A program made the position numbers and the translations under genes. A stretch of 64,000 nt of DNA from positions 240,490-304,489 of the forward strand of contig JBBDYC010000008.1 in NCBI GenBank assembly GCA_040901985.1, in the 5' to 3' direction. Below the pieces are notes generated by a model. That model was not told the origin of the DNA. It did no database searches and worked only from the letters and a program-made list of their open reading frames with translations. This document shows, piece after piece, positions 31,852 through 46,603 of the stretch (positions within the stretch are counted from its first letter, which is position 1; each line of letters opens with the position of its first letter). This DNA comes from Gemmatimonadaceae bacterium (GTDB taxonomy: Bacteria; Gemmatimonadota; Gemmatimonadetes; Gemmatimonadales; Gemmatimonadaceae).

Positions 31852-31969
31852 GTCGGCGATCAGCGATGCGAGACGCGTGGCGCGCGTCTCCGACATCTTC
31901 GTCGAGACCGCCGCCCGTCGGTTCCGCACGGCGCAGAACCACCCCCGCGGACGGTCGGTCCGCCCACCT

Positions 31970-32285
31970 CGAGACTCCACGACCCGGAGAACGAGAAGGA
32001 ACGAGAACGCTGCGGCGATGAGACCGACAGCCCGACCGAAGATCGCGCCACCAGCCAGCGTCAGCGGCGTGCCGGGGAGTTCGAGCGTCGCGGCAATGGC
32101 GTACGCAAGCACGAAGGCCGGTGCCGCCCACGGCACCGCGCGTGCCGCGCGCACGGCCTCGCCGATCCGCGCGGGATCTGCGTAGACGAGTAGCCCGGTA
32201 CGATCGGCAACGAACCACGCGGCGGCGGGTTGTCGACCGGGTCGGGCTTGGTCGGGACAAACGGGGAGATGAGCGGCTTGGTCAT
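31970..32285 (-). pseudogene. TVP38/TMEM64 (DedA/VTT) remnant with internal deletions
   Basis: ATG at 32285 (MTKPLISP..) is out of frame with WAAPAFVLAYAIAATLELPGTPLTLAGGAIFG, which runs directly into a final TM; VTT core missing; 3' limit approximate. Confidence 0.65.
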
Positions 32286-32290
32286 TCGGA

Positions 32291-32318
32291 GTGAACTCTT
32301 TTTCGGGACGCCGTATTG
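32291..32318 (+). promoter_or_regulatory. ECF-type promoter GTGAAC-N15-CGTATTG
   Basis: Upstream of the 32402 oxidoreductase; one of six copies. Confidence 0.65.
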
Positions 32319-32343
32319 CTGAGACGTGCGTCGTGCACCGAGC

Positions 32344-32372
32344 CAATACGTGACGCAGCCGACACGTTGCCC
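32344..32372 (-). promoter_or_regulatory. ECF-type promoter GGGCAAC-N15-CGTATTG
   Basis: Upstream of the TVP38 remnant start at 32285. Confidence 0.65.
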
Positions 32373-32401
32373 AATCATCCACACCGCCCGAAGCCGATTC
32401 G

Positions 32402-33832
32402 ATGTCTTCCAAGACCTATGATATCCTCGCCATTGGCGGCGGCACCGCCGGACTCGTCACGGCAGCAGGCGGCGCGGGGCTCGGCGCCAAGGTCGCGCTG
32501 ATCGAGCGTCACCGGATGGGGGGAGAGTGCCTCTGGAATGGTTGCGTCCCCAGCAAGGCGCTGATTGCCGCGGCCAAGGCGGCCAAGCAGGCGCGCACCG
32601 CGCGCCGGTTCGGCGTGGAAACGGGCGACGTGAGGGTGCACCTCGATGAGGCACTCGCCCACGTGCGTCGCGTGCAGGAGAAGATTGCCCCACACGATTC
32701 CCCGGAGCGGTTCCGTGGACTCGGGGTCGATGTGTATGAGGGGTCGGCAAGGATCGTCGCGCCCGATGCTGTTGAGGTGAACGGTGAGATGCTGCGCACG
32801 CGGCACCTGGTCATCGCCACGGGCACGCGACCGGCCGTACCGCCTATCCCGGGTCTCAGGGACGTGCCGTTCCACACGAACGAGTCGATCTTTCAAATTG
32901 AGCAGCTGCCGGGCACGTTGCTCGTGATCGGCGGCGGTTCCATCGGCACCGAGCTGGCGCAGGCCTTCGGGCGACTTGGCTCCACGGTGCACGTGATCGA
33001 GGCGCTCCCTGATTTCTTCTTCCGTGAGGACAAGGAGATCGCGGCGATGCTCCGCGAGCATCTGGAGGCTGAGGGCCTCACGTTTCATCTCGGCGCGCAG
33101 GCCAGCAATGTGCGCCAGGAAGGTGCGCGAACGGTGGTCACGATCACGCGCGCCGACGGTGGCATACAGGAGCTCACGGGGGACGCGCTCCTGGTTGCCG
33201 TGGGGCGCTCGCCGAGCATCGGGGACCTGGGACTGGAAGGAATCGGTGTGAAGACCGATCGTGGCGGCGTTGTCACGGACGGCAAGCTTCGCACGAACGT
33301 GCCGGGCGTCTGGGCGGTGGGCGATGTGGTCAGCGGCGGGCTCAAGTTCACGCACGTCGCGGACCATATGGCGCGTGGTCTCCTGCGCAACGCGCTCTTT
33401 CCGGGATCGAGCACGCTCGACTACTCCGCGGTGCCGTGGGTGACGTACACCGACCCCGAGCTGGCACACGTCGGTTTGACGGAGGCCGAGGCGCGCGAGC
33501 AATTCGGCAGTTCGATCGGTGTGTGGCGTCGGGACGTCGGCGCGGTGGATCGCGTCCTCGCCGACGGCGGACCGGCCGGGCTCGTCAAGATCGTGACCGA
33601 TCGGAAGGGGCGCGTGTTGGGTGGCCACATCCTTGGTCCGCACGCGGGGGATATGATCGGCGAGCTAACCATCGCGCTGAAGCACGGGCTCACGGTCGGG
33701 CAGCTTGGCGCGGTGATCCATCCCTACCCGACGACAGCGGAAGCCATCAAGCAGGCATCGGAGCAGCGGGTAAAGGCGACGTTCAGCGGGTGGAAGAAGG
33801 CGTTGGTGCGCCGGTTGGTGCGGCGGGCGTAG
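32402..33832 (+). CDS. Pyridine nucleotide-disulfide oxidoreductase (MerA/LpdA-like, no C-terminal CC)
   Basis: GGGTAG, GGECLWNGCVPSK, GGGSIG.E, WAVGD, HPYPT. Confidence 0.9.
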   Translation: MSSKTYDILAIGGGTAGLVTAAGGAGLGAKVALIERHRMGGECLWNGCVPSKALIAAAKAAKQARTARRFGVETGDVRVHLDEALAHVRRVQEKIAPHDSPERFRGLGVDVYEGSARIVAPDAVEVNGEMLRTRHLVIATGTRPAVPPIPGLRDVPFHTNESIFQIEQLPGTLLVIGGGSIGTELAQAFGRLGSTVHVIEALPDFFFREDKEIAAMLREHLEAEGLTFHLGAQASNVRQEGARTVVTITRADGGIQELTGDALLVAVGRSPSIGDLGLEGIGVKTDRGGVVTDGKLRTNVPGVWAVGDVVSGGLKFTHVADHMARGLLRNALFPGSSTLDYSAVPWVTYTDPELAHVGLTEAEAREQFGSSIGVWRRDVGAVDRVLADGGPAGLVKIVTDRKGRVLGGHILGPHAGDMIGELTIALKHGLTVGQLGAVIHPYPTTAEAIKQASEQRVKATFSGWKKALVRRLVRRA

Positions 33833-33857
33833 GCGCATGAGCGGAATCGAGCGACGT

Positions 33858-34673
33858 TCACAGCGACTCCTCCGAGAGTTCCAGAGTGGGGCCGATACGT
33901 TGCAGGACGCCCTCGCGGACCGGCGTCCAGGGCTCGTCGGTCGTGATCGGCTCGGAGGCGAACACCACTGCCCGGTAGTTCGACGGCGGTGTGCCCTCCA
34001 CGTGCAGGGCGCCGGCGCACACCTGGCAGGCGTGCACCTCCTCGCGCTCCACATACCAGAGTGAGCGGCCGCATCGCGAGACCACGGATTCGGCGCCATC
34101 GGTCACGACCATGTTGAGCGCCAACTCCGCGGCGGAATCTGCGGACCGCGACCACGCGGTCACGGCGTTGACGACCGTGCGCACCGCGTGCACGATGCCC
34201 CGCTCCGGCCGCCGCGCGAGTTCCGAAAGTGCTAAATGAAAGACGTGTTCACTGTCGGTGTCTCCACGCGGGAGGTCGCGGAAGGCCGGCTGCATCGCGG
34301 CGAGTACGCGGTCGCGGATGAGCGGAAAGGCACCGACGGTCCCGTTGTGCGCGAACAGCCACCGATCCACCTGGAACGGGTGCGTGTTCTCGGCGCGGCG
34401 GATGCCGATTGTCGCACTGCGGACGTGCGCGAGCGCGTTGGTCGTGAAGGCCTCGGCAGCGGCCCAGCGGAACTGCTCGCTATTTACGGCCGCGACAGGC
34501 TGGCGCGTCAAAAACGGGGCGAGGTCCGCGTAGTGCCCGAGTCCCCAGCCGTCGGGGTGCACCAGTCCCTCGGCGTCACCCGTGCTTTGCCGCAGCAGGG
34601 AGTTCTGCGCCGCGATGAGCTCGCACTCGATCTTGCGACGATGGCTCGAGCGAAAGGTGTAGAGGCGGCACAT
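33858..34673 (-). CDS. Class II glutamine amidotransferase / Ntn hydrolase (EgtC/YafJ-like)
   Basis: N-terminal MCRL, HPDGWG, AHVRSAT, NTHPF, HNG, GDTDSE, ASEP. Confidence 0.9.
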   Translation of the reverse strand: MCRLYTFRSSHRRKIECELIAAQNSLLRQSTGDAEGLVHPDGWGLGHYADLAPFLTRQPVAAVNSEQFRWAAAEAFTTNALAHVRSATIGIRRAENTHPFQVDRWLFAHNGTVGAFPLIRDRVLAAMQPAFRDLPRGDTDSEHVFHLALSELARRPERGIVHAVRTVVNAVTAWSRSADSAAELALNMVVTDGAESVVSRCGRSLWYVEREEVHACQVCAGALHVEGTPPSNYRAVVFASEPITTDEPWTPVREGVLQRIGPTLELSEESL

Positions 34674-34674
34674 C

Positions 34675-35457
34675 CTATTCCGCCGGCGCCAGCGCGTCAC
34701 CGCCTACGTAGCGGGTGGCCCACCCCGCAATGACGTCGGCGGCGAACTGGGCGTCGGACTCTCGCGTGAGCAAGTGATCGGCCCCGTCGAGTGACACGAA
34801 TGAGCGCGGGTGCTGCGCCGCCTCAAAGATGGCCTTGGCCTCGCGCACATTCACCACGCGGTCGTCAGGGGCGTGCATCACGAGGAGCGGCCGCCCGAGT
34901 GCGCGAATGCGTGCCGCCGGCTCCTGGGCCTCAAGGTCGTCGACGAACGCCTGGGTGATGGTGAACGGCCGCCCAGCGAGCGAGACTGTCGCCCGCCCCT
35001 CCTCCGCGATCCGCGCGAGCGCCTCGTGAAAGTGCTGGGCAACGTGCGCTGGATTGAATGGCGCACCGATGGTGACAATGGCCTTGCAGTCCTTGATGTC
35101 GCCGGCGGCGGCAAGCACCGCGGCGCCCCCCAGCGAGTGCCCGATCAGTAGTGCGGGGACTCCGTACGAGGCCCGGAGCCAGCCCGCCGCTGCCTGGACG
35201 TCAGCGACGTTCGATGAGAAATCCGTGTCGGCAAAGTCCCCCTCACTCGCGCCGAGTCCCGTGAAATCGAAGCGCAGCACACCGAAGCCGTGCTGCGCCA
35301 ACGCCCGCGCGATGAACGCCGCCGCCTTGCTCTCCTTGGAGCAGGTGAAGCAGTGGGCGATGATCGCGCAGGCGATGGGAGCTTCGCCAGCCGTATCGAG
35401 GCGTGCGGCGAGGGTCGCGCCGCGACTCCCTGGGAACGTGACGGGTGTGGATGGCAT
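34675..35457 (-). CDS. Alpha/beta hydrolase (resembles the N-domain of hydrolase-OsmC fusions)
   Basis: AHCFTCSK, RFDFTGLG.SEG, GHSLGG, DGADHLL. Confidence 0.9.
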   Translation of the reverse strand: MPSTPVTFPGSRGATLAARLDTAGEAPIACAIIAHCFTCSKESKAAAFIARALAQHGFGVLRFDFTGLGASEGDFADTDFSSNVADVQAAAGWLRASYGVPALLIGHSLGGAAVLAAAGDIKDCKAIVTIGAPFNPAHVAQHFHEALARIAEEGRATVSLAGRPFTITQAFVDDLEAQEPAARIRALGRPLLVMHAPDDRVVNVREAKAIFEAAQHPRSFVSLDGADHLLTRESDAQFAADVIAGWATRYVGGDALAPAE

Positions 35458-35484
35458 ACGGGTGCGAGGCGAACGCCGGCGCGT

Positions 35485-36378
35485 TCAGTGATGGTGCGGG
35501 GCGAGGGTCGTCGGAATGTGCGGTGACTCGAGGCCACCCGCCTCGATCCATCGCGCGGTGGTCCCGTACGCGGCCTCGATGAGTGCAGGCGAGTGCGTGA
35601 AGTCGTACGAACTGACCGGCATCGGGCAGATGGGCGGTACGACCGCGACGGGAAGTCGTGCGCTCCACGTCTGTGCCTCGGTCGCCAGCTGACGCGAGAG
35701 CAGGATGCCAACCATCCGCAATGCCATTGCCAGCACGCTCCGCGGTGGTTCCTGGGCCGCACACCCAAAGCCGGTGGGCAGGACGATCAATCGCGTTGCA
35801 CCCAGCGTGACTGCCGCAGTCAGCGCCGAGTGGCGTGCGAGCGCGCCGTCCACGAGCTGCCGATCCCCGATGCGTACAGGGGGAAATAGTCCCGGAATGG
35901 CGGCGCTCGCAACAACGGCGTCTGATGCGACGCCCTCCGTCAGCACGACCTCCTCGCCATCGCGCAAGTCAGCGGCCACCACGGCAATCGGGAGCACGGT
36001 GTCCTGCAACTCCTTGACGACGAGCCGAGTCGCGAGGAGCCGCCGGAGCCGCGCCGGATCCACGATGTGCGTGCGTCGACCGATCAGGGCGCGCAGCCAG
36101 GCGAGCGGGAGGTTGGGATAGATGCCATCCTCGGCGAGCCCACGCCAGATGGCGGCCATTCGCGCGACGCCATCCGAGGTCGGATCGCTTGCGAAGAAGA
36201 GTCCATTCAGTGCACCCACCGAGGTGCCGACGATGAAATCCGGGCGAACGCCGGCGCCGACGAGCGCCTGCAGCATCCCGACCTGCACAGCCCCGTGACT
36301 GCCCCCGCCCGCGAGTACGAAGGCCGTTCCGTGAAAGCGCGATGGAGGGAGGGGCACGGACTTCACCCCTTCCTCCAT
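35485..36378 (-). CDS. Patatin-like phospholipase
   Basis: GGGSHG, GTSVG, ASAAIPG.FPP, DGA; start uncertain. Confidence 0.9.
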   Translation of the reverse strand: MEEGVKSVPLPPSRFHGTAFVLAGGGSHGAVQVGMLQALVGAGVRPDFIVGTSVGALNGLFFASDPTSDGVARMAAIWRGLAEDGIYPNLPLAWLRALIGRRTHIVDPARLRRLLATRLVVKELQDTVLPIAVVAADLRDGEEVVLTEGVASDAVVASAAIPGLFPPVRIGDRQLVDGALARHSALTAAVTLGATRLIVLPTGFGCAAQEPPRSVLAMALRMVGILLSRQLATEAQTWSARLPVAVVPPICPMPVSSYDFTHSPALIEAAYGTTARWIEAGGLESPHIPTTLAPHHH

Positions 36379-36424
36379 CGCCAGTGATGCTTTCACGGTC
36401 CTTCTCCCGTGCGGCGTGGTGCGC

Positions 36425-36838
36425 TCACGCGTGCACCTGCCCCACCACGAACCGGGTATCGAGGTCTCGCAACAGGTAAAGCGCCGCGCAGGCCGCGAGC
36501 ATCGGCCACGCGGCAAAGAACAGCAGGTTCTTGAACGGATCGAGGTACTGCTGATACGAAGACAGCGTGGAGCCGAAATGCAGGAGCAACACTGCCCCGT
36601 ACGTAAAGCGCTTGGCGACACCGAGCACGAAGGCGACGATCAGCACCAGTTCGAGTCCACCGATGATGAGGAACGTCGACGCGCTGAGTCCGCCAAGGCC
36701 ATAGAAGTTCTCGAAGACCCGCGCGGCGTGCGCGGGCTGAACAAACTTGTCGAGTGTCCACATCAGCATCGTGATGAAGACGCCGAGCCGGAGCCAGAGC
36801 AGCGCCAGCGAGATTCGCGCCTCGTCGGGCGAAGTCAC
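36425..36838 (-). CDS. DoxX-like membrane protein
   Basis: LRLGVFITMLMWTLDKF..P, ELVL; GTGA overlap with the upstream gene. Confidence 0.8.
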   Translation of the reverse strand: MTSPDEARISLALLWLRLGVFITMLMWTLDKFVQPAHAARVFENFYGLGGLSASTFLIIGGLELVLIVAFVLGVAKRFTYGAVLLLHFGSTLSSYQQYLDPFKNLLFFAAWPMLAACAALYLLRDLDTRFVVGQVHA

Positions 36839-37464
36839 GCCGCGCTCGGCACGGAGGCCCCGGAAGCGATGCCTGGCACGCCTGGGGTCCAGGCCCAATC
36901 AAGGAATGGCGCATCCACGGGCGTGTTGAACAGATGGTTGGCGTAGTTGCTGATCGTCTTCACGCCGATGGCGAGGACGATGGAGAGCACGTGTCGCTCG
37001 GTGTAGCCGGCGGCGAGGAACGAAGCGAGATCGTTGCCGCTGGGGTGTCCGCGCTCCTGGACCATCACGCGGGTGAACGCCGCGAGGGCGGCGAGGCGCG
37101 GGTCGGTCCCGTTGCCGCCCAGCCGAATGGCGTGTACGGTGTCACGCGGGACACGCGATGGACCCGCAGCGAGGGTGCTGTGCGCCGCGATGCAGTATGC
37201 GCACTCGTTCTCGTGCGAGATCGCGAGAAGGACCACTTCCTGCTCGGCTGGCGTGAAGCCGCCCTCGGCGCGGAACTGCTGGTATCCCTCGGCATACGTG
37301 GTGAGAAGTCCCGGAAGCTGCGCCATGTTGCGGTACATATTCGGAATCATCCCCATCTTCTCCTGCGCGCCGCTGAGTACGGCGGCGGCCTCGGGGGCAG
37401 CGGTCTCCGGCGTAAGTGGGGGCAGCGTGAGGTGGGGCGACTGGTGCTGCGGGGCATTCGACAT
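36835..37464 (-). CDS. AhpD/carboxymuconolactone decarboxylase-family peroxidase-related protein
   Basis: GMIPNMY, SHENECAYCIAAH, SNYANH..TPVD. Confidence 0.9.
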   Translation of the reverse strand: MSNAPQHQSPHLTLPPLTPETAAPEAAAVLSGAQEKMGMIPNMYRNMAQLPGLLTTYAEGYQQFRAEGGFTPAEQEVVLLAISHENECAYCIAAHSTLAAGPSRVPRDTVHAIRLGGNGTDPRLAALAAFTRVMVQERGHPSGNDLASFLAAGYTERHVLSIVLAIGVKTISNYANHLFNTPVDAPFLDWAWTPGVPGIASGASVPSAA

Positions 37465-38978
37465 CGTGGCACTCCGTGGCAATGGGTTCGCCTGACCTCG
37501 CGGCCGGGCACACCGCGACAAGACGGGGGACCGCAGAAGGTTCCCGGACGGTCAGCGAGAGGTAGGAGTGGGATGGCAGGGCAATGCGCTCCATCACATA
37601 ACGCGCGCGTGGTGGTTGCCAACGAAACCACCGTCCCCGTGACGAAGATCAGTGGGATCCCGTAGATGGCCCACGGCCAGGTGTAGCCTCCCGCCTCGCC
37701 CACAATCACGAAACAGCCGACGCCCCACACCATCCCGACGGCCACGCTGGCCCAAGCACCGGCGGTGGTCGCGCGCTTCCAGTGGAAGCCGGCCAGAAGG
37801 GCGAACGCCAACGCCGCCACGGGGATGTTCGCGAGAATCAGCCGATCGAGAATGTCATCGACGAGAAAGGTTGCGCCGAGCCAGCTGAGTACGGCGAACC
37901 CCGTGAGCACAAGTCGCTGGGCGCGCACCGTGCGGACACGCTCTCCTGCGAGGTCTGCGGCGACCATCGCTCCCATCGCACTCCAAACGCCGGCGAGGGT
38001 GGTGAGCGCGGCTCCGAAAAGCACGGCGAAGCCCGCGCCACGGATGCCAGCCGGTAACCAGGTGCGTACCATCGTCGGCACCGCGAGCTGCGCATCGCTG
38101 AGTGCCGGTTGCTCCACGCGTAGCGTTGCCGCGGCAATCACCACGGCCCCGTACAGCACGAACACGATGGCCGCGCTGAGCGCGACGGCGCGAAAGGCGG
38201 TCCGCTGGTCACGGGCGGCAAAGATCTTCTGGCCGTACCACGGGGCGGCGATGTACGTGAAACAGGTGAGCACCATCAGCGTCAACACGAACCGCATCGA
38301 GAGCGCTGGGTGCTGCCACTGCGCGATAGGGTCGAGCAGGAGTTGATCGGCGGCGAAGACGGTGCCGAGCCCCGCGATTCCGCCGGCTCGCGCCCAGCCG
38401 ATGGCGAGCAGCACCGGAAAGAGAATCGCCGAGGCCACGAACCCCGCGACATCGGCGCGGACCACGGAAACCAGCCCGCCGGGGAGGACCGCCGCGAGCA
38501 CCACGCCGGTGAGAAGCGCGCCAAGCAGCGGCTGGGGGAGCCCCGGCGCGAACGGCACGAAGAGCAGCGTGAGCGACTTCACGTAGGTCGCGGTGAACCC
38601 GACCATCGCCACGAGGAGCAGGAGCGAGGCGGTGCGACCGAGGGCACGGGAGTAGCGCTCAGTGAAAAGCTCGGCGACCGAAAGGCGATTGAACCGCTTC
38701 CACGCGCGCGCGACCGTCAGTGTGTAAAAGGTAAGCCCGACCAGAAACACGGCAGGTAGGGCGATGGCCATTGGTCCCGCGGCGTAGCCGGCCCCCGCGA
38801 AGGCGAGCAGGGTGCTGGTGTTGAACTCCGTCATCACAAGGGTCGCGACGAGCGGGAAGAGGGCAAGGTCGCGCGATGCCACGGTGTAGTCGCTCGCGGT
38901 CGCCGAGCGACGGAGGCCGACGGTCGCGACGATGCCGAGGACGATGGTGAAGCCGAGTAGGTCGGGGAGGAGCATCAC
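37347..38978 (-). CDS. Sodium:solute symporter-like transporter with a probable aberrant C-terminal extension
   Basis: DYTVASR, ATLVMTEFNTSTLLAFAG, ELFTERYS, WKRATTAGAWAS; about 13 TMs; tail after ~37600 does not look like a transporter. Confidence 0.8.
   Translation of the reverse strand: MMLLPDLLGFTIVLGIVATVGLRRSATASDYTVASRDLALFPLVATLVMTEFNTSTLLAFAGAGYAAGPMAIALPAVFLVGLTFYTLTVARAWKRFNRLSVAELFTERYSRALGRTASLLLLVAMVGFTATYVKSLTLLFVPFAPGLPQPLLGALLTGVVLAAVLPGGLVSVVRADVAGFVASAILFPVLLAIGWARAGGIAGLGTVFAADQLLLDPIAQWQHPALSMRFVLTLMVLTCFTYIAAPWYGQKIFAARDQRTAFRAVALSAAIVFVLYGAVVIAAATLRVEQPALSDAQLAVPTMVRTWLPAGIRGAGFAVLFGAALTTLAGVWSAMGAMVAADLAGERVRTVRAQRLVLTGFAVLSWLGATFLVDDILDRLILANIPVAALAFALLAGFHWKRATTAGAWASVAVGMVWGVGCFVIVGEAGGYTWPWAIYGIPLIFVTGTVVSLATTTRALCDGAHCPAIPLLPLADRPGTFCGPPSCRGVPGREVRRTHCHGVPRCRMPRSTSRPTSRCPHLRRRPLPPRPPPYSAARRRRWG
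37519..37545 (-). promoter_or_regulatory. ECF-type promoter GGGAAC-N14-CGTCTTG
   Basis: 54 nt upstream of the AhpD-like start; spacer one base shorter than the other copies. Confidence 0.65.
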
Positions 38979-38989
38979 AAGGCGGTCGG

Positions 38990-39017
38990 GGGAACTTCTG
39001 GGCGCGGATGCGGATTG
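38990..39017 (+). promoter_or_regulatory. ECF-type promoter GGGAAC-N15-CGGATTG
   Basis: 50 nt upstream of the TonB receptor start. Confidence 0.65.
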
Positions 39018-39052
39018 CCTGCCGGTCCGCCGTCAAACAGACACCCTCCCGT

Positions 39053-39080
39053 CAATCCGCTCCAACGATGAAACGTTCGC
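39053..39080 (-). promoter_or_regulatory. ECF-type promoter GCGAAC-N15-CGGATTG
   Basis: About 75 nt upstream of the SSS start; overlaps the TonB receptor start codon. Confidence 0.6.
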
Positions 39081-41995
39081 GCCTCGCAATCCTGCTGGTC
39101 CTGGCTCTCGCGTCGGTGACCGGGGTGTCCTCGGCCCAGACGCAGTCCACCCTCAGCGGCACGGTGCGAGCCCAGCGTGGCGATCCGCTTGAGGACGCCG
39201 CGGTGCGCGTGGACCAGGGTGGAACGGTACCGACCGATGGGCAGGGACGGTTCTCGCTGGCCGTTCCGGAGGGCCGCGACCTCACGGTGGTGGTGACCGC
39301 GGCCGGCTTCACGCTGGCGCGCCTCACGGTTCCAGCCATTGCGTCCGGCGCGGAGCGGGCAATCGCCATCGTGATGTCACCGCTGCAGACCCTCGGGACC
39401 CAGACGATTGTCGCCCGCAGGACGCGGCCCCTGCTGAACACCGAGTCGGCCGCCACTGGTGGTGCGATCGAGGCCGAGGAGCTCGAGGCGCTGCCGACGG
39501 ATGCGCGTGATCCCATCGCACTCCTCTACAACATCCCCGGCGTGGCGCAGGCCACTGGGTTCTTCGGTGACGCGCCGCGGCTCTCGTTCAACGGCGGCAA
39601 CGCGCTGTACTCACAGTATCTGCTCGATGGGCTCGACAACAATGAAGGATTCCTCGGCGGCCCGCGGGTGGACCTCCCGCTCGGCGCGATCGCCCGGATG
39701 GATGCGCTGGTGAACACCTACGGCGCCCGGTACGGCCGGAGTCCCGATGGCGTGGTGGATGTGACGTCGGTGAGCGGGACGGAGACTTGGGTCGGCGATC
39801 TATTCGTGTACGATCGGCCGGGACGCCCGTTCGACGCTCGTACGCCGACGCCGTTCGGTGGTGCGTCCGAGGCCATCGCCCGGCGGCAGGAGGGCTTTCA
39901 GCGCTCGCAGGTGGGCGGTTCGCTGCGCGGCGCGCTCCGTCCGGGGCGCACCTACCTCGCGACCGCCATCGAGCGCACGCGCGAGCATGAGGACCGCATT
40001 GGGTCAACGGCACTCGCGCAGTTTCTTGGGACCGAGACGCGCACGACGTGGAAGGGCTTCACGCGACTCGATCACGGCTGGTCGCCGACGCAGACGACGA
40101 CGCTCCGCTGGGCCGGTTCGTTCGTGGATCGCGCGGGGAACGGCAGCGGGGTCGTGACGCCGGAAGCAGACATCACCACACGCCGCAACGGCACGCTCAC
40201 GGCGCTCACGCATCGGAGTGCCCGCCGCAACCAGATGGCCTCGAACACGCTGACCGTGCAGTACGGCACCTATCGCTGGTACTTCCCGCCAACGGAAAGC
40301 GACTTCTCGCGCCCGCAGGTTACGGTCATCACGCCTGAGTTCGAGACGCAGGCGGTGGTGGGGTCGAGCAACTTCATCTTTGACGAGACCGAACGCCAGT
40401 GGCAGATCCGCGACGTCTTCGAGGCCGCCATCGGCGAACGGCACACGCTGCGCGTGGGTGCGGACGTCATCCACGCGCGCTTTGCACTGGCCGCCGCGAG
40501 CACGAATCCCAACGGATCGTACGTCGTCTACAACGACGGCAACATCACCATTCCCACCGGGCGTCCGCTCTCGTTCACCGACATCCCGTCGGACGTGCGC
40601 GTCGAGAGCTACACCATTGACGCCCGTCCACAGCAGGTGAATCTCTCGCAGACCCTCTGGGGCGCGTTCATCGAGGACACGTGGCGTCCGACCGCGTCGC
40701 TGACGGTCATCGGCGGCCTGCGCTGGGATTACGACGACCTCACGTCGCGGGGCGAGAGCGATCCCGACCTCGATAACATCCAGCCTCGCCTCTCCTTCAA
40801 CTGGATGCGGACACCACGGGACGTCGTGCGCGGTGGCATCGGTCGGTATGCGGGCAAGTTTCCCTACGCCATCTACTCCGACGCCATTCAGCTCGGTGTA
40901 AACGGCAACGCGGTCATCACCTACAGCGGCGCCTCGGCGCCAGCGTTCGGGGCAGGCCCAGTTGCCGGGTCCGTGCCACCAGGGGACATCAGCAGTGTAC
41001 CGCGCGAGATCTTCCGCACCTTCGCCGTTGGACTCGGACAGCCGATGAGCTGGCAAGGGACGCTCGGCTACCAGCGGCAGATCGGCGACCGGTGGGGCAT
41101 CTCTGCGGACGTGGTGCTCAGTCGCACTCGCAACCTGCCTTGGATGGCGGACCTCAATCCCATTTCGCAACGGCTTACGGCCGCCGATTCCACGCCGCAG
41201 ACTTGCGCCAGCGCCACAAGCTGCCCGGGCGATGCCTTTCGGCCGGACGATCCGACGGTGAGCGGGTATCGCCGTCTCTCGACCGCGCAGTCGGGGGGCA
41301 CTGCCGAGTATGCGGCGCTCTATGTGGCCGCGCGCCACGACGTGACCGACCGCTGGCAGCTCGACGCCAACTGGGTCTGGTCGCGGGCGCAGAACAACAC
41401 CGAGGACATCAACTTCTCGGCGACGCAGGCCAACTGTTTCAGCCGCGACCGCACCGATGCGGTGACGGGCGAGGCCTGCACGAGCGACGAGTGGGCCGAC
41501 GCGAACAACGATCGGCGCCACCGACTCACGCTGCGGAGCGTGATGCGACTGCCGAAGGCCATCACCTGGTCTCTGATTGCCGACGCGCAGACGGGCGTGC
41601 CGGTGAACCGGCTCGCGGGAACAGCGGACGTCTCCGGGACCGCGCGCTACGATCTGCTTGGATCGGGTCCGGTGCGGGGCAACGCGTTCATCGGCAATGC
41701 GGACCGCTTCTTCGGCGTCGGGCGCAACGCAGAGCGGCTCCCGGGGTCGGTGACCATCTCAACGAGCGTCGCGCATCGGATTTCGGTCCGTGGCGGCGCG
41801 CTCGAGGCCCGACTCGACGCGTTCAATCTTCTGAACACACTCGTCTGGGGCGGCTACGCGAATGGGATCGGTGGTGGCGGCAGCCGGACGCAGTTCGGGC
41901 GCCCCGGTGACCCGACGTTGCTCTTTGCCGCGGCGCCGGCGCGTCAGTTCCAGGTCTCGGCACGCTATGTGTTCGGCGACGGCGCAACGCGCTAA
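39068..41995 (+). CDS. TonB-dependent receptor (Oar-like, N-terminal carboxypeptidase-regulatory-like domain)
   Basis: Signal peptide; LLDGLDNNE plug; GLRWDYD, QPRLSFNW, DAFNLLN, RQFQVSARYVF. Confidence 0.92.
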   Translation: MKRSRLAILLVLALASVTGVSSAQTQSTLSGTVRAQRGDPLEDAAVRVDQGGTVPTDGQGRFSLAVPEGRDLTVVVTAAGFTLARLTVPAIASGAERAIAIVMSPLQTLGTQTIVARRTRPLLNTESAATGGAIEAEELEALPTDARDPIALLYNIPGVAQATGFFGDAPRLSFNGGNALYSQYLLDGLDNNEGFLGGPRVDLPLGAIARMDALVNTYGARYGRSPDGVVDVTSVSGTETWVGDLFVYDRPGRPFDARTPTPFGGASEAIARRQEGFQRSQVGGSLRGALRPGRTYLATAIERTREHEDRIGSTALAQFLGTETRTTWKGFTRLDHGWSPTQTTTLRWAGSFVDRAGNGSGVVTPEADITTRRNGTLTALTHRSARRNQMASNTLTVQYGTYRWYFPPTESDFSRPQVTVITPEFETQAVVGSSNFIFDETERQWQIRDVFEAAIGERHTLRVGADVIHARFALAAASTNPNGSYVVYNDGNITIPTGRPLSFTDIPSDVRVESYTIDARPQQVNLSQTLWGAFIEDTWRPTASLTVIGGLRWDYDDLTSRGESDPDLDNIQPRLSFNWMRTPRDVVRGGIGRYAGKFPYAIYSDAIQLGVNGNAVITYSGASAPAFGAGPVAGSVPPGDISSVPREIFRTFAVGLGQPMSWQGTLGYQRQIGDRWGISADVVLSRTRNLPWMADLNPISQRLTAADSTPQTCASATSCPGDAFRPDDPTVSGYRRLSTAQSGGTAEYAALYVAARHDVTDRWQLDANWVWSRAQNNTEDINFSATQANCFSRDRTDAVTGEACTSDEWADANNDRRHRLTLRSVMRLPKAITWSLIADAQTGVPVNRLAGTADVSGTARYDLLGSGPVRGNAFIGNADRFFGVGRNAERLPGSVTISTSVAHRISVRGGALEARLDAFNLLNTLVWGGYANGIGGGGSRTQFGRPGDPTLLFAAAPARQFQVSARYVFGDGATR

Positions 41996-42004
41996 CTTCA
42001 CCGA

Positions 42005-42604
42005 ATGATCGACGAACCCGTCAGGCGCTGGCTCGGACGCACGGCGGCCGCACCGGCGCACTGGCTGCGCCGTGCTGGTCTCACGCCCAACGCGGTGACC
42101 ATCGGCGGCTGCGCGCTGGGCATCGCGGCGGCGGCAATCGTTGCGACCGGACGGCTGCGTCTCGGGCTCGCCGTCTGGCTCGCCGGTCGGATTCTCGATG
42201 CCTACGATGGCCTGCTCGCCCGAATTGCGGATCGAGCGAGTCTCTTTGGCGGCTTCCTGGACATCTCGCTCGATATGCTGGCCTACTCGGCCATGGCCGT
42301 GGGATTCGCAATCGCGATGCCGGCCGACACGCAGCTCTGGATGTTCGTGCTCGTCGGGTACGTGATGGCGATTACGACCACCCTCGCGCTCTCGTCCCTG
42401 CTCGAGCGGGCGGACCGCACACTCGGCGGCGATCGCTCGATTCAGTTCACGCCGGGGCTCGCAGAGGGTGGGGAGACGACGATTCTGTATTCCCTCCTCG
42501 TGCTGTTCCCCTGGTGGAGCCGTCCGCTGCTCTGGCTCTGGATTGCGGCGCTCGCTGTCACGGCGCTGACTCGGTTTCGGCTCGCCGCCCGCATTCTCCG
42601 TTAG
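42005..42604 (+). CDS. CDP-alcohol phosphatidyltransferase family (YnjF-like)
   Basis: TPNAVT, DAYDGLLAR..GGFLDISLD, GLAEGGET. Confidence 0.85.
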   Translation: MIDEPVRRWLGRTAAAPAHWLRRAGLTPNAVTIGGCALGIAAAAIVATGRLRLGLAVWLAGRILDAYDGLLARIADRASLFGGFLDISLDMLAYSAMAVGFAIAMPADTQLWMFVLVGYVMAITTTLALSSLLERADRTLGGDRSIQFTPGLAEGGETTILYSLLVLFPWWSRPLLWLWIAALAVTALTRFRLAARILR

Positions 42605-42621
42605 CCGCGCGGCGCAGGGCC

Positions 42622-42649
42622 GGGAACTTCCCGAGCGCGCCCCGTCTTG
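42622..42649 (+). promoter_or_regulatory. Autoregulatory ECF promoter GGGAAC-N15-CGTCTTG
   Basis: 10 nt upstream of the sigma ATG. Confidence 0.7.
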
Positions 42650-42659
42650 CCTCGACGTC

Positions 42660-43253
42660 ATGACTGAATCCCGACGGACCGACGGCGAGTTCGAGACGGA
42701 GGCGTTGCGCCATCTCCCGGAGGTGGCACGCTTCGCACGCTCCCTCGCTGGGAACGACGCGGATGCGGACGACCTCGTACAGGACACCTTCCTGACGGCC
42801 TACCGGCAGTGGCACCAGTACGAGCGTGGCACCGCGTGTCGCGCGTGGCTGTTCACGATCTGCCGCAATCGGTACTACCGGGTCCGTGAGCGCGCGCAGC
42901 GTCAGGTGGCGACGGACGATCCGGTGCTGGAGTCCCTGGCGGCGGCGGAGTTGCATCGGTCGGCGCAGGAGGGTGGACTCAGTGATGCTTTCGAGCGTAG
43001 CGAAGTCCGCGAAGCCGTTCAGCGCGCGATGGCCGCGTTGCCCGAGGTCTACCGCGAGGTGGCCGTGCTGGTGGACCTGCACGACCAGACGTACGAGACC
43101 GTTGCGACCATCCTTCAGGTTCCAGTGGGCACCGTGCGCTCACGGCTCTTCCGCGCCCGGCGGCTCCTGCAGGGCAGCCTGCTCGCGTTCGCCGTCGATG
43201 CCGGGCTCCGACCTCGCGGTGCGACCCCTTCTACCAGAGGACTGGCGTCATGA
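42660..43253 (+). CDS. ECF sigma factor (SigR/SigH-like)
   Basis: DADDLVQDTF, GTACRAWLFTICRN, LPEVYRE, PVGTVRSRLFRAR. Confidence 0.95.
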   Translation: MTESRRTDGEFETEALRHLPEVARFARSLAGNDADADDLVQDTFLTAYRQWHQYERGTACRAWLFTICRNRYYRVRERAQRQVATDDPVLESLAAAELHRSAQEGGLSDAFERSEVREAVQRAMAALPEVYREVAVLVDLHDQTYETVATILQVPVGTVRSRLFRARRLLQGSLLAFAVDAGLRPRGATPSTRGLAS

Positions 43254-43510
43254 TGGAGATGCTGGATTGCGACGCCGTGATGCGTCAGATGTGGGACTTC
43301 CTCGACGGTGAACTGCCCCTGGAGCGGATGCGGGCGCTCGAGGCACATATCGCGATGTGCGAGCGTTGCAGCGGGCACGCGAAGTTCGAGCGGTCATTCA
43401 AGGCGGCGCTCCGGACGGCGCGAGAGGACGGTGCGGACTCGACGGCGCTGGGCGCGCGCGTACTCGCCGCGTTGCGTCGCGAGGGGTTCACGGACCCGCG
43501 CGGCGCCTGA
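43250..43510 (+). CDS. Zinc-binding anti-sigma factor (zf-HC2, RsrA-like)
   Basis: C..V...WDFLDGEL, HIAMCERC; soluble; ATGA overlap with the sigma gene. Confidence 0.92.
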   Translation: MMEMLDCDAVMRQMWDFLDGELPLERMRALEAHIAMCERCSGHAKFERSFKAALRTAREDGADSTALGARVLAALRREGFTDPRGA

Positions 43511-43514
43511 GGCG

Positions 43515-45371
43515 ATGGCGATGACGGATTCCGCGTGGCGGGAATCAGCCCCGACGTTCTGGGCACTCGTTGTCGTGAGTGCCTTGCTTCCGGTTGCGCA
43601 CCCGCTCCTGATGCCGGTCGTGGGTGTCCCGTCGCACCTCCTCTGGTGGTCGCACGTCCTCGCCGTGGCTCTCTCGGCCGACCGATGGGGTGAGCGAGGG
43701 GCTGTAGTCGCGGTCCTTGCCTCGGCGTGGGGAGTGATTTTCGGCGAGCGGATGCTTGGCGCCGGGTATGGCATCGCCGCGGACTGGGGGACGGTCACCG
43801 CCCTGGCGGCCGCCCTCACCGCGACGAATCTCCTGGTGGGCGGCTACGCACTCTTCGCGCGTCGCACGCGCCGCCGATTCGAGGCGCTGTTCTTCGGTGG
43901 GCCGGTGGGGATCGTGCGGGTGCGACCGGATGGGCGGGTTGCGATGGAGAATCCGCTCGCTCCGCAGATTCTTTCTGTTGACGGCCGCAGCGTCGTCGGT
44001 CAGCCCATCGACGCACTGTTCGAGCGCGACGGTGACGAGGCCTCCCTGTTGACGGGGAGCGTGGCGGGTCCGGGCGCGATGCAGGTGCTAAGGCTCCGCG
44101 CGCTCCCGGAGCGGATGGTCTCGCTCACGAGCGTGCGACTCGAGACCGATGGGGATTGGCAGGTGGTCGTGCAGGACGTGACCGATCGCGAACGGCTGCA
44201 GGCGCAGTTGCGCGAGGCACAGAAGATGGAGGCCGTGGGGCGCTTCGCGGCGGGCGTGGCGCACGACTTCAACAACGTGCTCGCCGCCATCCGGCTCTCG
44301 GCGGAGATGGCCATCGAGGATGTCGGCACTGACTCACCGACGCACGAACTGCTCGTGGAGGTGCAGCGCTCCTCGGCGCGCGCCGCGCTCCTGACGCGGC
44401 GGCTCCTGACGTTCAGCCGCACGGGCTCGCCGAGTTCCGCCGTAGTCGACCCGAATCGCGTGATCGCCGAGCTCGAGCCGATGCTTCGGCGGCTCGTCAG
44501 CGAGCGGGTGCATTTCGCGGCGGTCCTGCAGCCGGACCTGCCTCCGGTGCGAGCCGATCTCGGGCACCTCGAGCAAATCCTGCTGAATCTCGTGATCAAT
44601 GCCAACGACGCGATGCCGACTGGTGGAGCGCTCTCGCTGGAGACCACAGAGGTCGCCGCTGGGGCGCTCCCGGCGTCCGTGGCCAACGAAACGCGCTCGC
44701 TGCCGGCGACGCGGTGGGTGGAGCTGCGCGTCGTGGACAGCGGGACGGGGATGGATGAAGCCACGCGTGCCCGGATGTTCGAGCCCTTCTTCACGACGAA
44801 GGGCCCGACGAAGGGGACCGGACTCGGACTGGCGACCGTGGCGACGCTCACGGCGCGGAATGGTGGCTTCGTGCATGTGGAGACCGCAATTGGCCAGGGC
44901 AGCGCGTTTCGCCTCTTCTTTCCGGCGTCGAACACTGCCGTGCCGGTGTCGGAGCATCGCCCAGGGAGCCTGACGCTCCGTACCGGTCACGAGCGCATCC
45001 TGCTCGTCGAGGATGAGGCACCAGTGCGCACCGCGTTCGTGCGGATCCTGCGACGCCTTGGCTACGCGGTCACGGAGGCACAGCACGGCCGAGACGCGCT
45101 GGAGAGCCTGCGCTCGCATCCCGTGGATCTGATCATCACGGACGTCATGATGCCGACAATGGACGGGCCGACGTTGATCGCCGAGTTGCGGCAGCGCGCC
45201 GATGCGACGCCGGTCCTGTTTGTGTCTGGGTACGCGCACGATACGCTCGAACTGCCTGCGGAGCTCCACGGGTCGCCATCGCGCTTCCTGCAGAAGCCGT
45301 TCTCGAGCGAAGAGCTCGCGACCGAGGTGCGGACCACGTTGGATGCCGCTCGGAAGCTGGCGCGCGCCTGA
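43515..45371 (+). CDS. Membrane hybrid histidine kinase (TM-PAS-HisKA-HATPase-REC)
   Basis: AGVAHDFNN, NLVINANDAM, DSGTGM, FFTTK..GTGLGL, ILLVEDE, TDVMMP, KPF. Confidence 0.93.
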   Translation: MAMTDSAWRESAPTFWALVVVSALLPVAHPLLMPVVGVPSHLLWWSHVLAVALSADRWGERGAVVAVLASAWGVIFGERMLGAGYGIAADWGTVTALAAALTATNLLVGGYALFARRTRRRFEALFFGGPVGIVRVRPDGRVAMENPLAPQILSVDGRSVVGQPIDALFERDGDEASLLTGSVAGPGAMQVLRLRALPERMVSLTSVRLETDGDWQVVVQDVTDRERLQAQLREAQKMEAVGRFAAGVAHDFNNVLAAIRLSAEMAIEDVGTDSPTHELLVEVQRSSARAALLTRRLLTFSRTGSPSSAVVDPNRVIAELEPMLRRLVSERVHFAAVLQPDLPPVRADLGHLEQILLNLVINANDAMPTGGALSLETTEVAAGALPASVANETRSLPATRWVELRVVDSGTGMDEATRARMFEPFFTTKGPTKGTGLGLATVATLTARNGGFVHVETAIGQGSAFRLFFPASNTAVPVSEHRPGSLTLRTGHERILLVEDEAPVRTAFVRILRRLGYAVTEAQHGRDALESLRSHPVDLIITDVMMPTMDGPTLIAELRQRADATPVLFVSGYAHDTLELPAELHGSPSRFLQKPFSSEELATEVRTTLDAARKLARA

Positions 45372-45418
45372 CCCGCGTACGAAGTTCCCACGTGGCCGCC
45401 CTCACCATTTCGAACGAT

Positions 45419-46525
45419 ATGCCTGACGAAACCTGGCACGATATCGGCGCCGCCGACGAGTTCCGGACGCGCCCGCTCTCCGAAGTGACCATCGGCCGTC
45501 TGCGCCTCGCCCTCTCGTCGGGCCCGGAGGGGTTCGGCGCGGTCTCAGGCGTCTGCTCGCACGCGGGTGGTCCACTTGGGCAGGGTGTGCTCGACGGCGC
45601 GTATGTCGTCTGCCCTTGGCACCACTGGAAGTACCATCGCGTGACCGGCGCTGGCGAGCCCGGCTATGAGGACGACGCATTGCCGCGCTACGCCGTGAGG
45701 GAGGCGGACGGGCGGCTCCTCGTGGACATCGCCAGCGGGACGAAGCGACGGAAGGGGAAACACGACCCCCACCCCCTCGCCCGGCCCGTGGTGCGAGGTG
45801 AGGGGCCGCCCCGCGTGCTCGGCATCTCGACCACCAATATGGAACGCGGTCACCCGCGCCCCTCCACGTCCGAGATCCTGCTGGAGCACGCGCTCGGATT
45901 CGCCCGCGGCACGCTCGGGGCGGAGCAACAGCTCATCCGGCTCAGGGATCTGACGTTCCGCGCGTGCGAGGGGTTCTACTCCAAGAGTGCGAGGGCCTGC
46001 ACCTGGCCCTGTTCCATCACGCAGATGGACCCCGAGGACCAGCTCGATCGCGTCTACGAGGCGGTCGTGCATTGGGCCGACGTCGTGCTCATTGCCACGC
46101 CAATCCGGTGGGGCAATGCGTCCTCGCTCTATTATAAGATGATCGAGCGCTTCAACTGCATCCAGAACCAGGTGACCATTGCGAATCGCGTGCTTCTTCG
46201 CAACAAGGTCGCGAGCTTTATCATCACCGGTGGTCAGGACAACGTGCAACAGGTGGCGGGACACCTTCTCGGATTCTTTGGCGAGATCGGCTTCCACTTT
46301 CCGCAGTTTCCGTACATCGCGCACAGCCGTGGGTGGAGCGCCGAGGATATGGAGAACAATGTGCGCGCGGTGCAGGAGAGCGAGGATCTGCGGACGGGGG
46401 CGGAACAACTGGTGGCGCGGGCGGTGGACGCCGCGCTGCTACACCTCGATCACGCCGACGCCGACCATCTGCAGTCACGCGGTGGCAGGAAGGCGCACCG
46501 ACTCGCGGCGGGAACTCCCGAGTAG
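45419..46525 (+). CDS. Rieske domain fused to flavodoxin-like (NADPH-dependent FMN reductase) domain
   Basis: CSH..CPWH; CEGFYS..CTWPC, ATPIRWG. Confidence 0.85.
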   Translation: MPDETWHDIGAADEFRTRPLSEVTIGRLRLALSSGPEGFGAVSGVCSHAGGPLGQGVLDGAYVVCPWHHWKYHRVTGAGEPGYEDDALPRYAVREADGRLLVDIASGTKRRKGKHDPHPLARPVVRGEGPPRVLGISTTNMERGHPRPSTSEILLEHALGFARGTLGAEQQLIRLRDLTFRACEGFYSKSARACTWPCSITQMDPEDQLDRVYEAVVHWADVVLIATPIRWGNASSLYYKMIERFNCIQNQVTIANRVLLRNKVASFIITGGQDNVQQVAGHLLGFFGEIGFHFPQFPYIAHSRGWSAEDMENNVRAVQESEDLRTGAEQLVARAVDAALLHLDHADADHLQSRGGRKAHRLAAGTPE

Positions 46526-46603
46526 GTACGTGGGCACGCCGGCACAGATGCGCGTGGGAGCGGAAGGTGTGGCATCGAACCGCTGCATTCAGCAGTCGGC
46601 GCC

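Follow-up and report, generated by a model that had tools for sequence, protein, structure and literature searches.

Gene content and limits of the island

The window, that is, the whole 64-kb stretch of DNA that was analysed, contains an accessory insertion between a PAP2 gene and tesB (31860..46550, approximately 14.7 kb, limits approximate), which is longer than the 12 kb given in an earlier sequence-only reading. In eight of 24 genus loci tesB follows PAP2 within about 1.2 kb, and the module was seen at the PAP2-tesB junction in none of the 24; among 55 genus genomes, the sodium:solute symporter (SSS) was found in five and PAP2 in 51. The G+C content of the insertion (0.677; flanks 0.71 and 0.70) lies at the 10th percentile genome-wide and is not unusual.

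The first genes are a frameshifted and truncated TVP38/DedA (VTT) remnant (31985..32285, minus strand, lower limit approximate), whose start codon and conserved part are in different frames and which has a 49-aa match to E. coli YdjX (E 3e-5), and a class I pyridine nucleotide-disulfide oxidoreductase (32402..33832, plus strand; Pfam Pyr_redox_2 and Pyr_redox_dim), which is PRK06370-like and scores below the cut-offs for PRK06370, MerA and RclA. The mercuric reductase MerA was rejected as an identification for this protein, which scored 371 with TIGR02053 against a cut-off of 454 and has only cysteines C43 and C48; MerA requires a C-terminal cysteine pair. An arsenosugar (ArsS) cluster was also rejected, as TIGR04167 and the TIGR04283 glycosyltransferase were both below cut-off in this genome, which is 99.97% complete.

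The minus strand then carries genes for an EgtC-like class II glutamine amidotransferase (33858..34673; GATase_4; TIGR03442 119, cut-off 219), an alpha/beta hydrolase (34675..35457), a patatin-like phospholipase (35485..36378) that also lies beside motif sites in locus L088, a DoxX-like membrane protein (36425..36838) without a direct Pfam match, named from 39% identity to a DoxX-positive homologue, an AhpD/CMD-family peroxidase-related protein (36835..37464; CMD, TIGR00778 over cut-off), which was unmatched in a search with E. coli YnjA, and the SSS (37347..38978; SSF), whose frame continues across the AhpD promoter and whose orthologue in L031 has 463 aa. On the plus strand are a TonB-dependent receptor with a CarboxypepD_reg N-terminus (39068..41995), present in 30 of 401 phylum genomes, and a YnjF-like CDP-alcohol phosphatidyltransferase (42005..42604; 35% identical to E. 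coli YnjF, E 6e-23). Pfam and NCBIfam bore out the gene labels of the sequence-only reading, those of the DoxX and EgtC-like genes being the weaker two.

The ECF sigma factor (197 aa; 42660..43253, plus strand) has regions 2 and 4 only (Sigma70_r2 and r4_2; TIGR02937 over cut-off). Its best PDB match is Mycobacterium tuberculosis SigH (E 2.5e-23), followed by an alphaproteobacterial sigma (5uxx, 3.5e-20), and its score of 105 for the actinobacterial SigH equivalog TIGR02947 is below the cut-off of 252. The 86-aa zinc anti-sigma (43250..43510, plus strand; zf-HC2) reads C7-X25-H33-X3-C37-X2-C40, with no change in any of the four ligands across the 10 aligned homologues, and no transmembrane segment was found in it (maximum 19-residue hydropathy 0.24). 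A hybrid histidine kinase (43515..45371, plus strand), which begins after a 4-nt gap from the anti-sigma stop and has no motif of its own, is likely read through from the sigma promoter; it is missing here in L031 and L032. Beyond it, and beyond the limits drawn earlier, lies another module gene, a Rieske/FMN-reductase fusion (45392..46525, plus strand), which comes after the sigma/anti-sigma pair in L031 (84%) and L032 (76%).

In 65 related loci, for which the TonB receptor was the query (65), YnjF was found in 42, TVP38 in 37 and the reductase in 34, and the transporter was either an SSS (31) or a YnjB-like ABC system (24), never both. No riboswitch was found at the module in the six loci scanned, and one TPP element lay 4 kb from the module, before another gene.

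Promoter-like sites and their conservation

A search with the pattern AAC-N14/15-CG[GT][AC]TTG returned six sites in the window, all inside 31970-43510, and each was correctly oriented 10-83 nt upstream of a start codon, much as the sequence-only reading had described. Dinucleotide shuffles (n = 200) gave on average 0.45 sites per window and 0.145 per island, with a maximum of two. The enrichment of the motif is thus local (6 sites versus 0.45 expected) and does not extend to the genome with this loose pattern: 30 of 36 matches in 2.64 Mb lie outside the island and other spacers match similarly (5-25 matches for each spacer of 5-29 nt; 25 for N14 and 11 for N15).

The sites GTGAAC-N15-CGTATTG (32291..32318, plus strand; 20.6 bits on the orthologue matrix), 83 nt before the oxidoreductase, and GGCAAC-N15-CGTATTG (32344..32372, minus strand), 58 nt before the TVP38 remnant, form a face-to-face pair; the second, with 12.4 bits on the orthologue matrix, is weaker than the other five and aims at a broken gene. 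The site GGGAAC-N14-CGTCTTG (37519..37545, minus strand; 23.2 bits, orthologue matrix), 54 nt before the AhpD-like ATG at 37464, falls within a run-on tail of about 40 codons of the SSS reading frame and not in clean intergenic DNA. Another face-to-face pair consists of GGGAAC-N15-CGGATTG (38990..39017, plus strand), 50 nt before the TonB receptor, with 20.6 bits on the module matrix and 17.3 on the core-paralogue matrix, and GCGAAC-N15-CGGATTG (39053..39080, minus strand), 74-77 nt before the SSS and overlapping the TonB start codon, with 13.1 and 13.6 bits, respectively. The putative autoregulatory site GGGAAC-N15-CGTCTTG (42622..42649, plus strand) is the genome's top match on both matrices and lies 10 nt before the sigma ATG, and the sigma mRNA would be near-leaderless. 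This site is kept in L031 (9 nt before sigma), L032 and L094; in L069, L073, L079, L086 and L088 sigma abuts ynjF without a separate site.

The motif was kept at orthologous intergenic positions, with 51 sites in 12 sigma-bearing loci, 45 of them N15, and a consensus of GGAAC-N15-(C/G)GT(C/A)TTG. A genome scan with the orthologue matrix gave six sites of at least 20 bits (four in the window, two on contig C4) versus 0-3 for 14 wrong-spacer controls, a result that is partly circular because the matrix was seeded from window sites. For co-variation, a matrix was built from the six window sites only and the SSS/TonB intergenic stretch was scanned: a site of at least 12 bits was present in 10 of 10 loci with this sigma type in the genome and in one of 17 without it, the 195-bit and 12-bit thresholds having been set post hoc with the data already seen. 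L100 has a site of 15.9 bits and lacks this sigma type. On the TonB tree this co-variation amounts to only about three evolutionary changes, all concordant. In addition, L063 has four sites beside module genes though its sigma is on another contig, the site is absent before the TonB gene in the L064 genome with a 57% sigma (best score 1), and the module sigmas group in a single clade (SH-aLRT 86). The position 10 nt before the sigma ATG, the conservation and the co-variation indicate, as the sequence-only reading had suggested, that the motif probably acts as an ECF promoter that goes with this sigma. The result is a promoter motif with phylogenetic support, and a list of targets, for an ECF sigma in Gemmatimonadota.

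The description of the regulon as self-contained fails. Contig C4 has three further motif sites and an intact TVP38-DUF547 gene (C4:43732-45141), whose counterpart in the window is broken. It also carries what is left of a deleted sigma gene, a stump that matches a module-sigma HMM (E 5e-6 among three frames), followed by an orphan anti-sigma (61% identical), and it encodes a paralogue of the AhpD-like protein (48% identical). Moreover, the genome contains two paralogous sigma/anti-sigma pairs with overlapping promoter preferences. A structure model of the window sigma with the C4 orphan anti-sigma scored 0.71 versus 0.49 for the best control, the runs agreeing in at least 89% of contacts with a partner pLDDT of at least 81. 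The mark used was reached by 51 of 78 solved pairs and two of 108 mismatched pairs; the model shows likeness only, since sigma/anti-sigma complexes have been solved and close cousins pass too. It is likely that the window sigma also controls the C4 cluster in trans.

Proposed regulation and alternatives

We consider it probable, with moderate confidence, that the six sites are promoters for the island's own ECF sigma, which is predicted to be kept inactive by the zinc anti-sigma until oxidation of the zinc-site thiols frees it and which likely drives the C4 cluster in trans as well. The soluble anti-sigma would bind sigma via its Cys/His zinc core, as ZAS proteins do. Since no other sensor domain is present, the zinc-cysteine site is the probable target of the signal, most likely disulfide or electrophile stress. 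Released sigma would start transcription at GGAAC-N18-(C/A)TTG promoters, including its own, in a positive feedback that the co-transcribed anti-sigma, together with the spare one on C4, would damp. The induced core module would comprise TVP38-DUF547, the flavoprotein disulfide reductase, SSS, TonB receptor and YnjF, besides lineage-specific thiol enzymes, and a small solute may be imported through the TonB receptor and SSS and processed at the membrane. Since polymerase footprints on the face-to-face pairs would overlap, each pair would fire alternately.

We infer the thiol or redox trigger only from the thiol-redox genes that recur as neighbours in relatives: sites precede a thioredoxin in L080 and AhpC/TSA proteins in L088 and L094, BrxC is part of the TVP38 unit in L047, and MsrB/MsrA come after sigma, anti-sigma and DoxX in L089. 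The YHS (seleno)protein that lies behind sites on C4 and in L042 and L063 is counted among these neighbours. The anti-sigma has RsrA-like Cys/His spacing, but by its sequence RsrA's redox-signature residues are absent. It reads HIAMCERCSG where RsrA reads HFEECSPCLE, and scores 46 for the RsrA equivalog TIGR03988 (cut-off 62.5); some orthologues have acidic residues before the Cys and none has L-E after. In RsrA, E39/E40/L45/E46 were proposed as redox determinants, and the signature, an acidic pair before the first CXXC Cys and Leu-Glu/Arg after the second, was described for actinomycetes only (PMC3177212).

The absence of this signature is also consistent with an unlikely alternative, in which the sigma and promoters are the same but a thiophilic metal or metalloid (Hg, Cd, As(III) or a Se oxyanion) displaces the anti-sigma zinc and the module handles that element. 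MerR-MerT adjoins the C4 cluster and the module in L063, as MerR does the module in L045, and selenium-linked families recur in the loci (a YHS seleno-domain, Nterm_to_SelD-like and PrdB/GrdB-like proteins). The reductase resembles MerA, but with a TIGR02053 score below the MerA cut-off and no C-terminal cysteine pair. Furthermore, a motif site was found upstream of neither merR nor merT, TIGR04167 (arsenosugar rSAM) was over cut-off in one of five genomes tested, not this one, and TIGR04283 in none of the five.

Less likely still is that a paralogous sigma reads the promoters as much as, or more than, the island's own, which would make the island a satellite of a wider regulon. The genome has three related sigma/ZAS pairs (57% and 48% identity) with a nearly identical region 4.2 helix, the paralogues being a genus-wide core pair beside pdxH and the C19 pair. 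Both CGGATTG sites (38990, 39080) fit the core matrix nearly as well as the module matrix, the core autopromoter in L012 matches the originally proposed motif exactly, the C19 paralogue's own promoter reaches 18.0 bits on the module matrix, and L100 has its site without the module sigma. Against this, the core matrix gives no more than 9 bits to four of the six window sites and to each of the three main C4 sites, at least seven genomes with only a more distant sigma type have no motif at SSS/TonB, and the C19 pair has its own GGGAAC-N18-GTTG sites, both with G at the first -10 position.

It is improbable that the regulon responds to the transported solute, whether scarce or present, instead of redox stress, with the anti-sigma removed by proteolysis or a partner protein. 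The TonB receptor, YnjF, TVP38, reductase and transporter are the most constant genes over the 65 loci while the thiol enzymes differ from locus to locus, but the accessory genes are repeatedly thiol-redox enzymes, no conserved protease, adaptor or sensor gene was found beside the sigma/anti-sigma pair, and the riboswitch scan was negative. No substrate was found for the core cargo.

That the repeats are chance, a repressor operator or RNA hairpin arms in divergent regions is very improbable: the 7-mers are identical within each window pair and form inverted repeats (CGTATTG...CAATACG; CGGATTG...CAATCCG), and the loose motif lacks genome-wide enrichment, but sigma, AhpD and YHS each have a single directional copy in front of them, the distance between the two boxes is constant, most orthologues have unlike 7-mers within a pair, and the motif tracks sigma.

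Comparison with known systems

The sigma regulon with a zinc anti-sigma that we favour has a known mechanism, an autoregulated ECF with a zinc anti-sigma being textbook, so the surprise is limited and the new part is the cargo. In SigR-RsrA of Streptomyces coelicolor and SigH-RshA of M. tuberculosis (ECF12), sigma is likewise followed by a soluble zinc-finger anti-sigma at +1, an ECF12 feature according to the supplement to PMC7826278, and the RsrA-type anti-sigma has the same Cys-X25-His-X3-Cys-X2-Cys spacing (window anti-sigma aligned to 5frf). Their autoregulatory promoter also has GGAAY with equal box spacing (GGAAY-N18-GTT), and the SigH promoter GGAAYR-N17-GTT (PMC4803200) has the spacing of the island motif; thioredoxin-type targets are shared with the island's relatives. 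In contrast, the first -10 base here is C or A, not G (G in none of the six window sites, the spacing and -35 being found in most), with a conserved upstream (C/G)GT, and the regulon is small, accessory and transport-centred whereas theirs is a global core regulon. In the supplement to PMC7826278, promoter motifs are not conserved among ECF12 subgroups, and Gemmatimonadota are not among the phyla that its part 6 lists for ECF12.

For ECF26 RpoE1/RpoE4 of Sinorhizobium meliloti, passages of PMC6180224 describe the promoter GGAAT-N16-CGTCT before a sulfite oxidase operon, whose CGTCT box resembles that of the island, as well as small accessory regulons with cross-talk between paralogues, as here; the island spacer is one base shorter in the CGTCT register. 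ECF26 membership was rejected, as its anti-sigmas are described there as transmembrane with a periplasmic domain and the island's is soluble with 86 aa.

By sequence comparison, the island cargo corresponds to E. coli ydjXZ/ynjBCD/ynjF in a Gemmatimonadota version, with a TonB receptor added. It shares with the E. coli ydjXYZ-ynjABCD-ynjE/ynjF cluster TVP38/DedA (33-35% to YdjX/YdjZ) and YnjF (35%), and SSS gives way to a YnjB-like binding protein (37-39%) and its ABC partners in 24 of the 65 related loci, but here a TonB receptor, SSS, DUF547, a disulfide reductase and ECF sigma control are found. According to a passage of PMC2731931, BaeR induces ynjABCD of E. coli weakly and probably not directly. 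The E. coli counterpart is annotated only as putative and has been uncharacterised so far; for the TVP38/YnjB/YnjF module, the present analysis gives a first hint of how it is regulated and suggests an inducing condition that can be tested.

The core cargo (transporter, TonB receptor and YnjF) is not a recognised thiol-repair set. A more far-reaching and rather doubtful interpretation is that a sigma regulon for thiol stress outside Actinobacteria here serves chiefly for uptake and not for repair; it would tie YdjXZ/YnjBCD/YnjF to disulfide stress as TonB plus SSS-or-ABC import of a protective compound of sulfur or selenium that the flavoprotein reductase would use, and the conserved face-to-face promoters would make divergent genes compete for one sigma. 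A literature search found no published ECF sigma regulon of this kind, with promoter motif and targets, for Gemmatimonadota. The genome shows regulon turnover under way, one copy having lost sigma and the other TVP38.

Motif sites in the window and in related loci

Exactly six matches to the pattern were found in the window, at 32291(+), 32372(-), 37545(-), 38990(+), 39080(-) and 42622(+), against 0.45 expected from 200 dinucleotide shuffles, which confirmed the copies reported, with their positions and strands, by the sequence-only reading; their orientation toward start codons was also borne out, every copy lying 10-83 nt from its start codon. Gene labels were verified by Pfam and NCBIfam. 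The loose pattern matched 36 times across the 2.64-Mb, 99.97% complete genome and similar counts were obtained for other spacer lengths, so that its meaning rests on clustering and placement.

An orthologue matrix was derived from 51 intergenic sites of 12 sigma-bearing loci, with N15 in 45 of the 51 and the consensus GGAAC(T/C)-...-(C/G)GT(C/A)TTG; it is partly circular, because it was seeded from the window sites. With this matrix, 20 bits or more were reached by six genome sites (two on contig C4, the other four within the window), compared with 0-3 in 14 wrong-spacer controls; it scored two reverse-strand window sites, 32372 and 39080, lower (12.4 and 13.1 bits). A large genome-wide regulon was unsupported, since the 47 genome matches of at least 14 bits were not above the 47-58 found with wrong-spacer controls. 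Scanning of 31800-46700 for sigma-70 promoters and terminators returned 1 and 5 matches (1.1 and 6.0 expected, respectively).

The sequence-only reading had also proposed scanning homologous loci with a matrix from the six window sites. Among 65 receptor loci, 28 with head-to-head SSS and TonB receptor genes were taken; L049, whose genome was outside the sigma search, was left out of the count (its sites score 12.0 and 13.3 bits). All 10 loci with a module-type sigma in the genome carry a site scoring 12 bits or more, versus 1 of 17 without, the cut-offs for the sigma (at least 195 bits) and the site (12 bits) having been picked after the data were seen, in genomes that are possibly incomplete. 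Two loci stand against an assignment of the sites to this sigma: L100 has a 15.9-bit site in a genome without a module-type sigma, and L064 has a 57% sigma in its genome and no site ahead of the receptor. The loci are not independent because of kinship, as three changes suffice to explain the sigma label on a quick 40-row TonB tree, which fits one gain and two losses. One inferred loss is a 12-locus clade nested within sigma-bearing lineages. In ten of its loci (L051, L054, L055, L057, L058, L059, L060, L062, L067 and L071) a gap of only ~10 nt separates the head-to-head start codons of SSS and TonB, too little for promoters to fit between the genes; L054 shows no clear ATG for TonB. In L063, sites are retained at four module genes and the sigma is on a separate contig.

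These results describe a real, conserved, accessory ECF/zinc anti-sigma (ZAS) regulon across at least two loci. The sites are almost certainly ECF promoters, and the window sigma (42660-43253) is probably their main reader. Read as GGAAC-N18-(C/A)TTG, they have the same spacing as the M. tuberculosis SigH consensus GGAAYR-N17-GTT (as quoted in an excerpt of PMC4803200), and, read as GGAAC-N15-CGTCT, they resemble, one base shorter, the S. meliloti RpoE4 target promoter (excerpt of PMC6180224); both are sequence readings, and the choice between them depends on start sites. The CGTT box of the Anaeromyxobacter ECF12 promoter (PMC3817407) differs from the window sites.

Extent of the insertion and a second locus

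PAP2 is followed by tesB within ~1.2 kb in 8 of 24 genus loci, with the module at that place in none of the 24. Of 55 genus genomes, 51 have PAP2 and five have SSS, and the TonB receptor is found in 30 of 401 phylum genomes. Based on this adjacency and on the rarity of SSS and receptor among relatives, the insertion spans about 31.86-46.55 kb, and the 12-kb limits assigned earlier were too short. The insertion includes a hybrid histidine kinase gene and a Rieske/FMN-reductase gene, the latter also following sigma/anti-sigma genes in L031 and L032. Both genes are without a motif site of their own, and a 4-nt gap after the anti-sigma stop suggests that they are likely transcribed by read-through from the sigma promoter. 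A lone GGGAACTCC lies at the Rieske gene end (46510-46525), at the place where a full site precedes YHS in L031; it may be half of a promoter, sitting at the right breakpoint, or may be chance. At 37347-37590 the SSS frame extends beyond the end of its orthologues, over the AhpD promoter and start, which looks like the junction of an insertion of the AhpD-EgtC operon; in L031 no such operon separates SSS from the reductase.

The island had further been described as self-contained, which did not hold, as three more sites on C4, an orphan anti-sigma and paralogous sigma pairs were identified. The C4 sites, missed by the original pattern because their second box starts with GG, are located at 42497(-) ahead of a YHS (seleno)protein, at 43563(+) ahead of an intact TVP38-DUF547 fusion, and at 43639(-) ahead of the anti-sigma and an AhpD-like gene. 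This second locus (C4:39356-45141, corresponding to L040:5357-11142) lies inside a pyruvate dehydrogenase/lipoate gene cluster and contains, besides these genes and a sigma stump, a second peroxidase-related gene and MerR-MerT-thioredoxin-DUF6789. Its anti-sigma is 61% identical to that of the window and has no sigma gene alongside; ~25 codons 5' of it match the C-terminus of an HMM built for module sigmas (E 5e-6, three frames compared), indicating that a sigma gene was deleted there. The window TVP38 gene is frameshifted and truncated, so the two loci appear to complement one another. When the window sigma was modeled in complex with the C4 anti-sigma, the score was 0.71, versus 0.49 for the best control (contact agreement at least 89%, partner pLDDT at least 81). 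The mark for such models was attained by 51 of the 78 solved pairs tried and by 2 of the 108 mismatched ones; the model shows likeness, not binding, since such complexes have already been solved and close cousins pass too. Weak candidates for extra targets are the thioredoxin at C4:40149 and the OsmC-like gene C2:130275, each with a 14.2-bit site, the latter 21 nt downstream of the weak site C2:130229 (14-18 bits).

Paired promoter-like sites and paralogous sigma factors

Divergent genes carry face-to-face site pairs, whose AAC-to-AAC distances are 74 and 84 nt for the two window pairs and 76 nt for the C4 pair, and 11 such pairs occur in 10 related loci (66-107 nt), with back-to-back pairs as well in two loci. 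The site directed at SSS shares bases with the start codon of TonB. Were transcripts to start ~7 nt past TTG, their 5' ends would overlap and occupancy by the two polymerases would be mutually exclusive. The paired 7-mers are unlike each other in most orthologues, so the window's inverted repeats are a by-product; an RNA hairpin reading was rejected on inspection of the orthologous pairs. No relevant description of face-to-face ECF promoters was found in the literature search.

Two more sigma/anti-sigma pairs are present in the genome, at C19:51880 (57% identity) and, genus-wide, at C8:153953 (48%); module sigmas form a separate clade with C19 as sister (quick tree; SH-aLRT 86 and 88). The genus-wide core pair (C8:153916-154812, L034), beside a gene labeled pdxH from its sequence, has the autopromoter GGAAC-N16/17-GAT(T/A) in 13 of 14 loci, and a matrix scan gave no clear further targets for it. 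The C19 pair (C19:50983-53245; L033:9984-12246), next to what we take from sequence-derived labels to be heme biosynthesis genes, has two back-to-back GGGAAC-N18-GTTG sites, one ahead of the pair and one ahead of DUF6789-OsmC. The core matrix scored the window CGGATTG sites at 17.3 and 13.6 bits and the remaining four at 7.4 bits or less, and cross-talk between sigmas at the SSS/TonB pair is plausible.

Proposed signal and target genes

The anti-sigma (43250-43510) is a soluble protein of 86 aa with C7-X25-H33-X3-C37-X2-C40, which aligns to the RsrA spacing. Because it has no other domain, the simplest reading is that the signal would act on its zinc site. Thiol oxidation is favored over metal displacement as the putative trigger on account of the passenger genes, and the whole model with this trigger is considered somewhat better than an even prospect. 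A cysteine pair in the sigma was rejected as the sensor, since it is not conserved. The window anti-sigma lacks E39/E40/L45/E46, a pattern that has been put forward for ZAS proteins sensitive to redox and that derives solely from actinomycetes (PMC3177212). The module pair works like the ECF12 SigR-RsrA pair described in an extract of PMC7826278, a likeness of working mode and not a group assignment; the window sigma and anti-sigma fall below the SigH and RsrA cut-offs. The literature search, with most subscription papers outside its scope, found no description of the regulon or of ECF control of the module, and no paper joining three or more of ydjX, ynjA, ynjF, TVP38, DUF547 and mercuric reductase.

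Over the 65 loci, the receptor is accompanied by YnjF in 42, TVP38/DUF547 in 37 and the reductase in 34; the transporter is SSS in 31 or a YnjB-like ABC system in 24, never both, and neither in 10; 18 loci have a sigma match and 14 have an anti-sigma. BLAST identities to E. coli K-12 ydjX-ynjF (TVP38 33-35%, YnjF 35%, binding protein 37-39%) identify the core module, by sequence, as a relative of this uncharacterised cluster with an added outer-membrane receptor. Induction of E. coli ynjABCD by BaeR is weak and probably indirect (excerpt of PMC2731931). The AhpD-like gene was rejected as YnjA, having no BLAST match, and no PDB entry matched the YnjB-like protein; an Atlas search for the transported substrate returned generic TonB clusters only. 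In the reductase, C43/C48 is the only cysteine pair, and the protein is under all named cut-offs, including MerA. An arsenosugar pathway was rejected for the source genome, its enzymes not being over cut-off.

Variable passengers include thioredoxin, AhpC/TSA proteins, BrxC, a DsbD-like protein, YceI, YHS (seleno)protein and DUF6789, as well as MsrB/MsrA in L089; a site lies immediately ahead of some of these genes but not of every one. An Rfam scan of six sigma-less loci returned two tRNAs and one TPP riboswitch, all off the module, the riboswitch (L100:3960-4063) lying ahead of a split TonB-like gene 4 kb away. Split PrdB/GrdB-like genes adjoin the module in L063, L077, L085, L100 and L106, possibly reflecting selenocysteine read-through.
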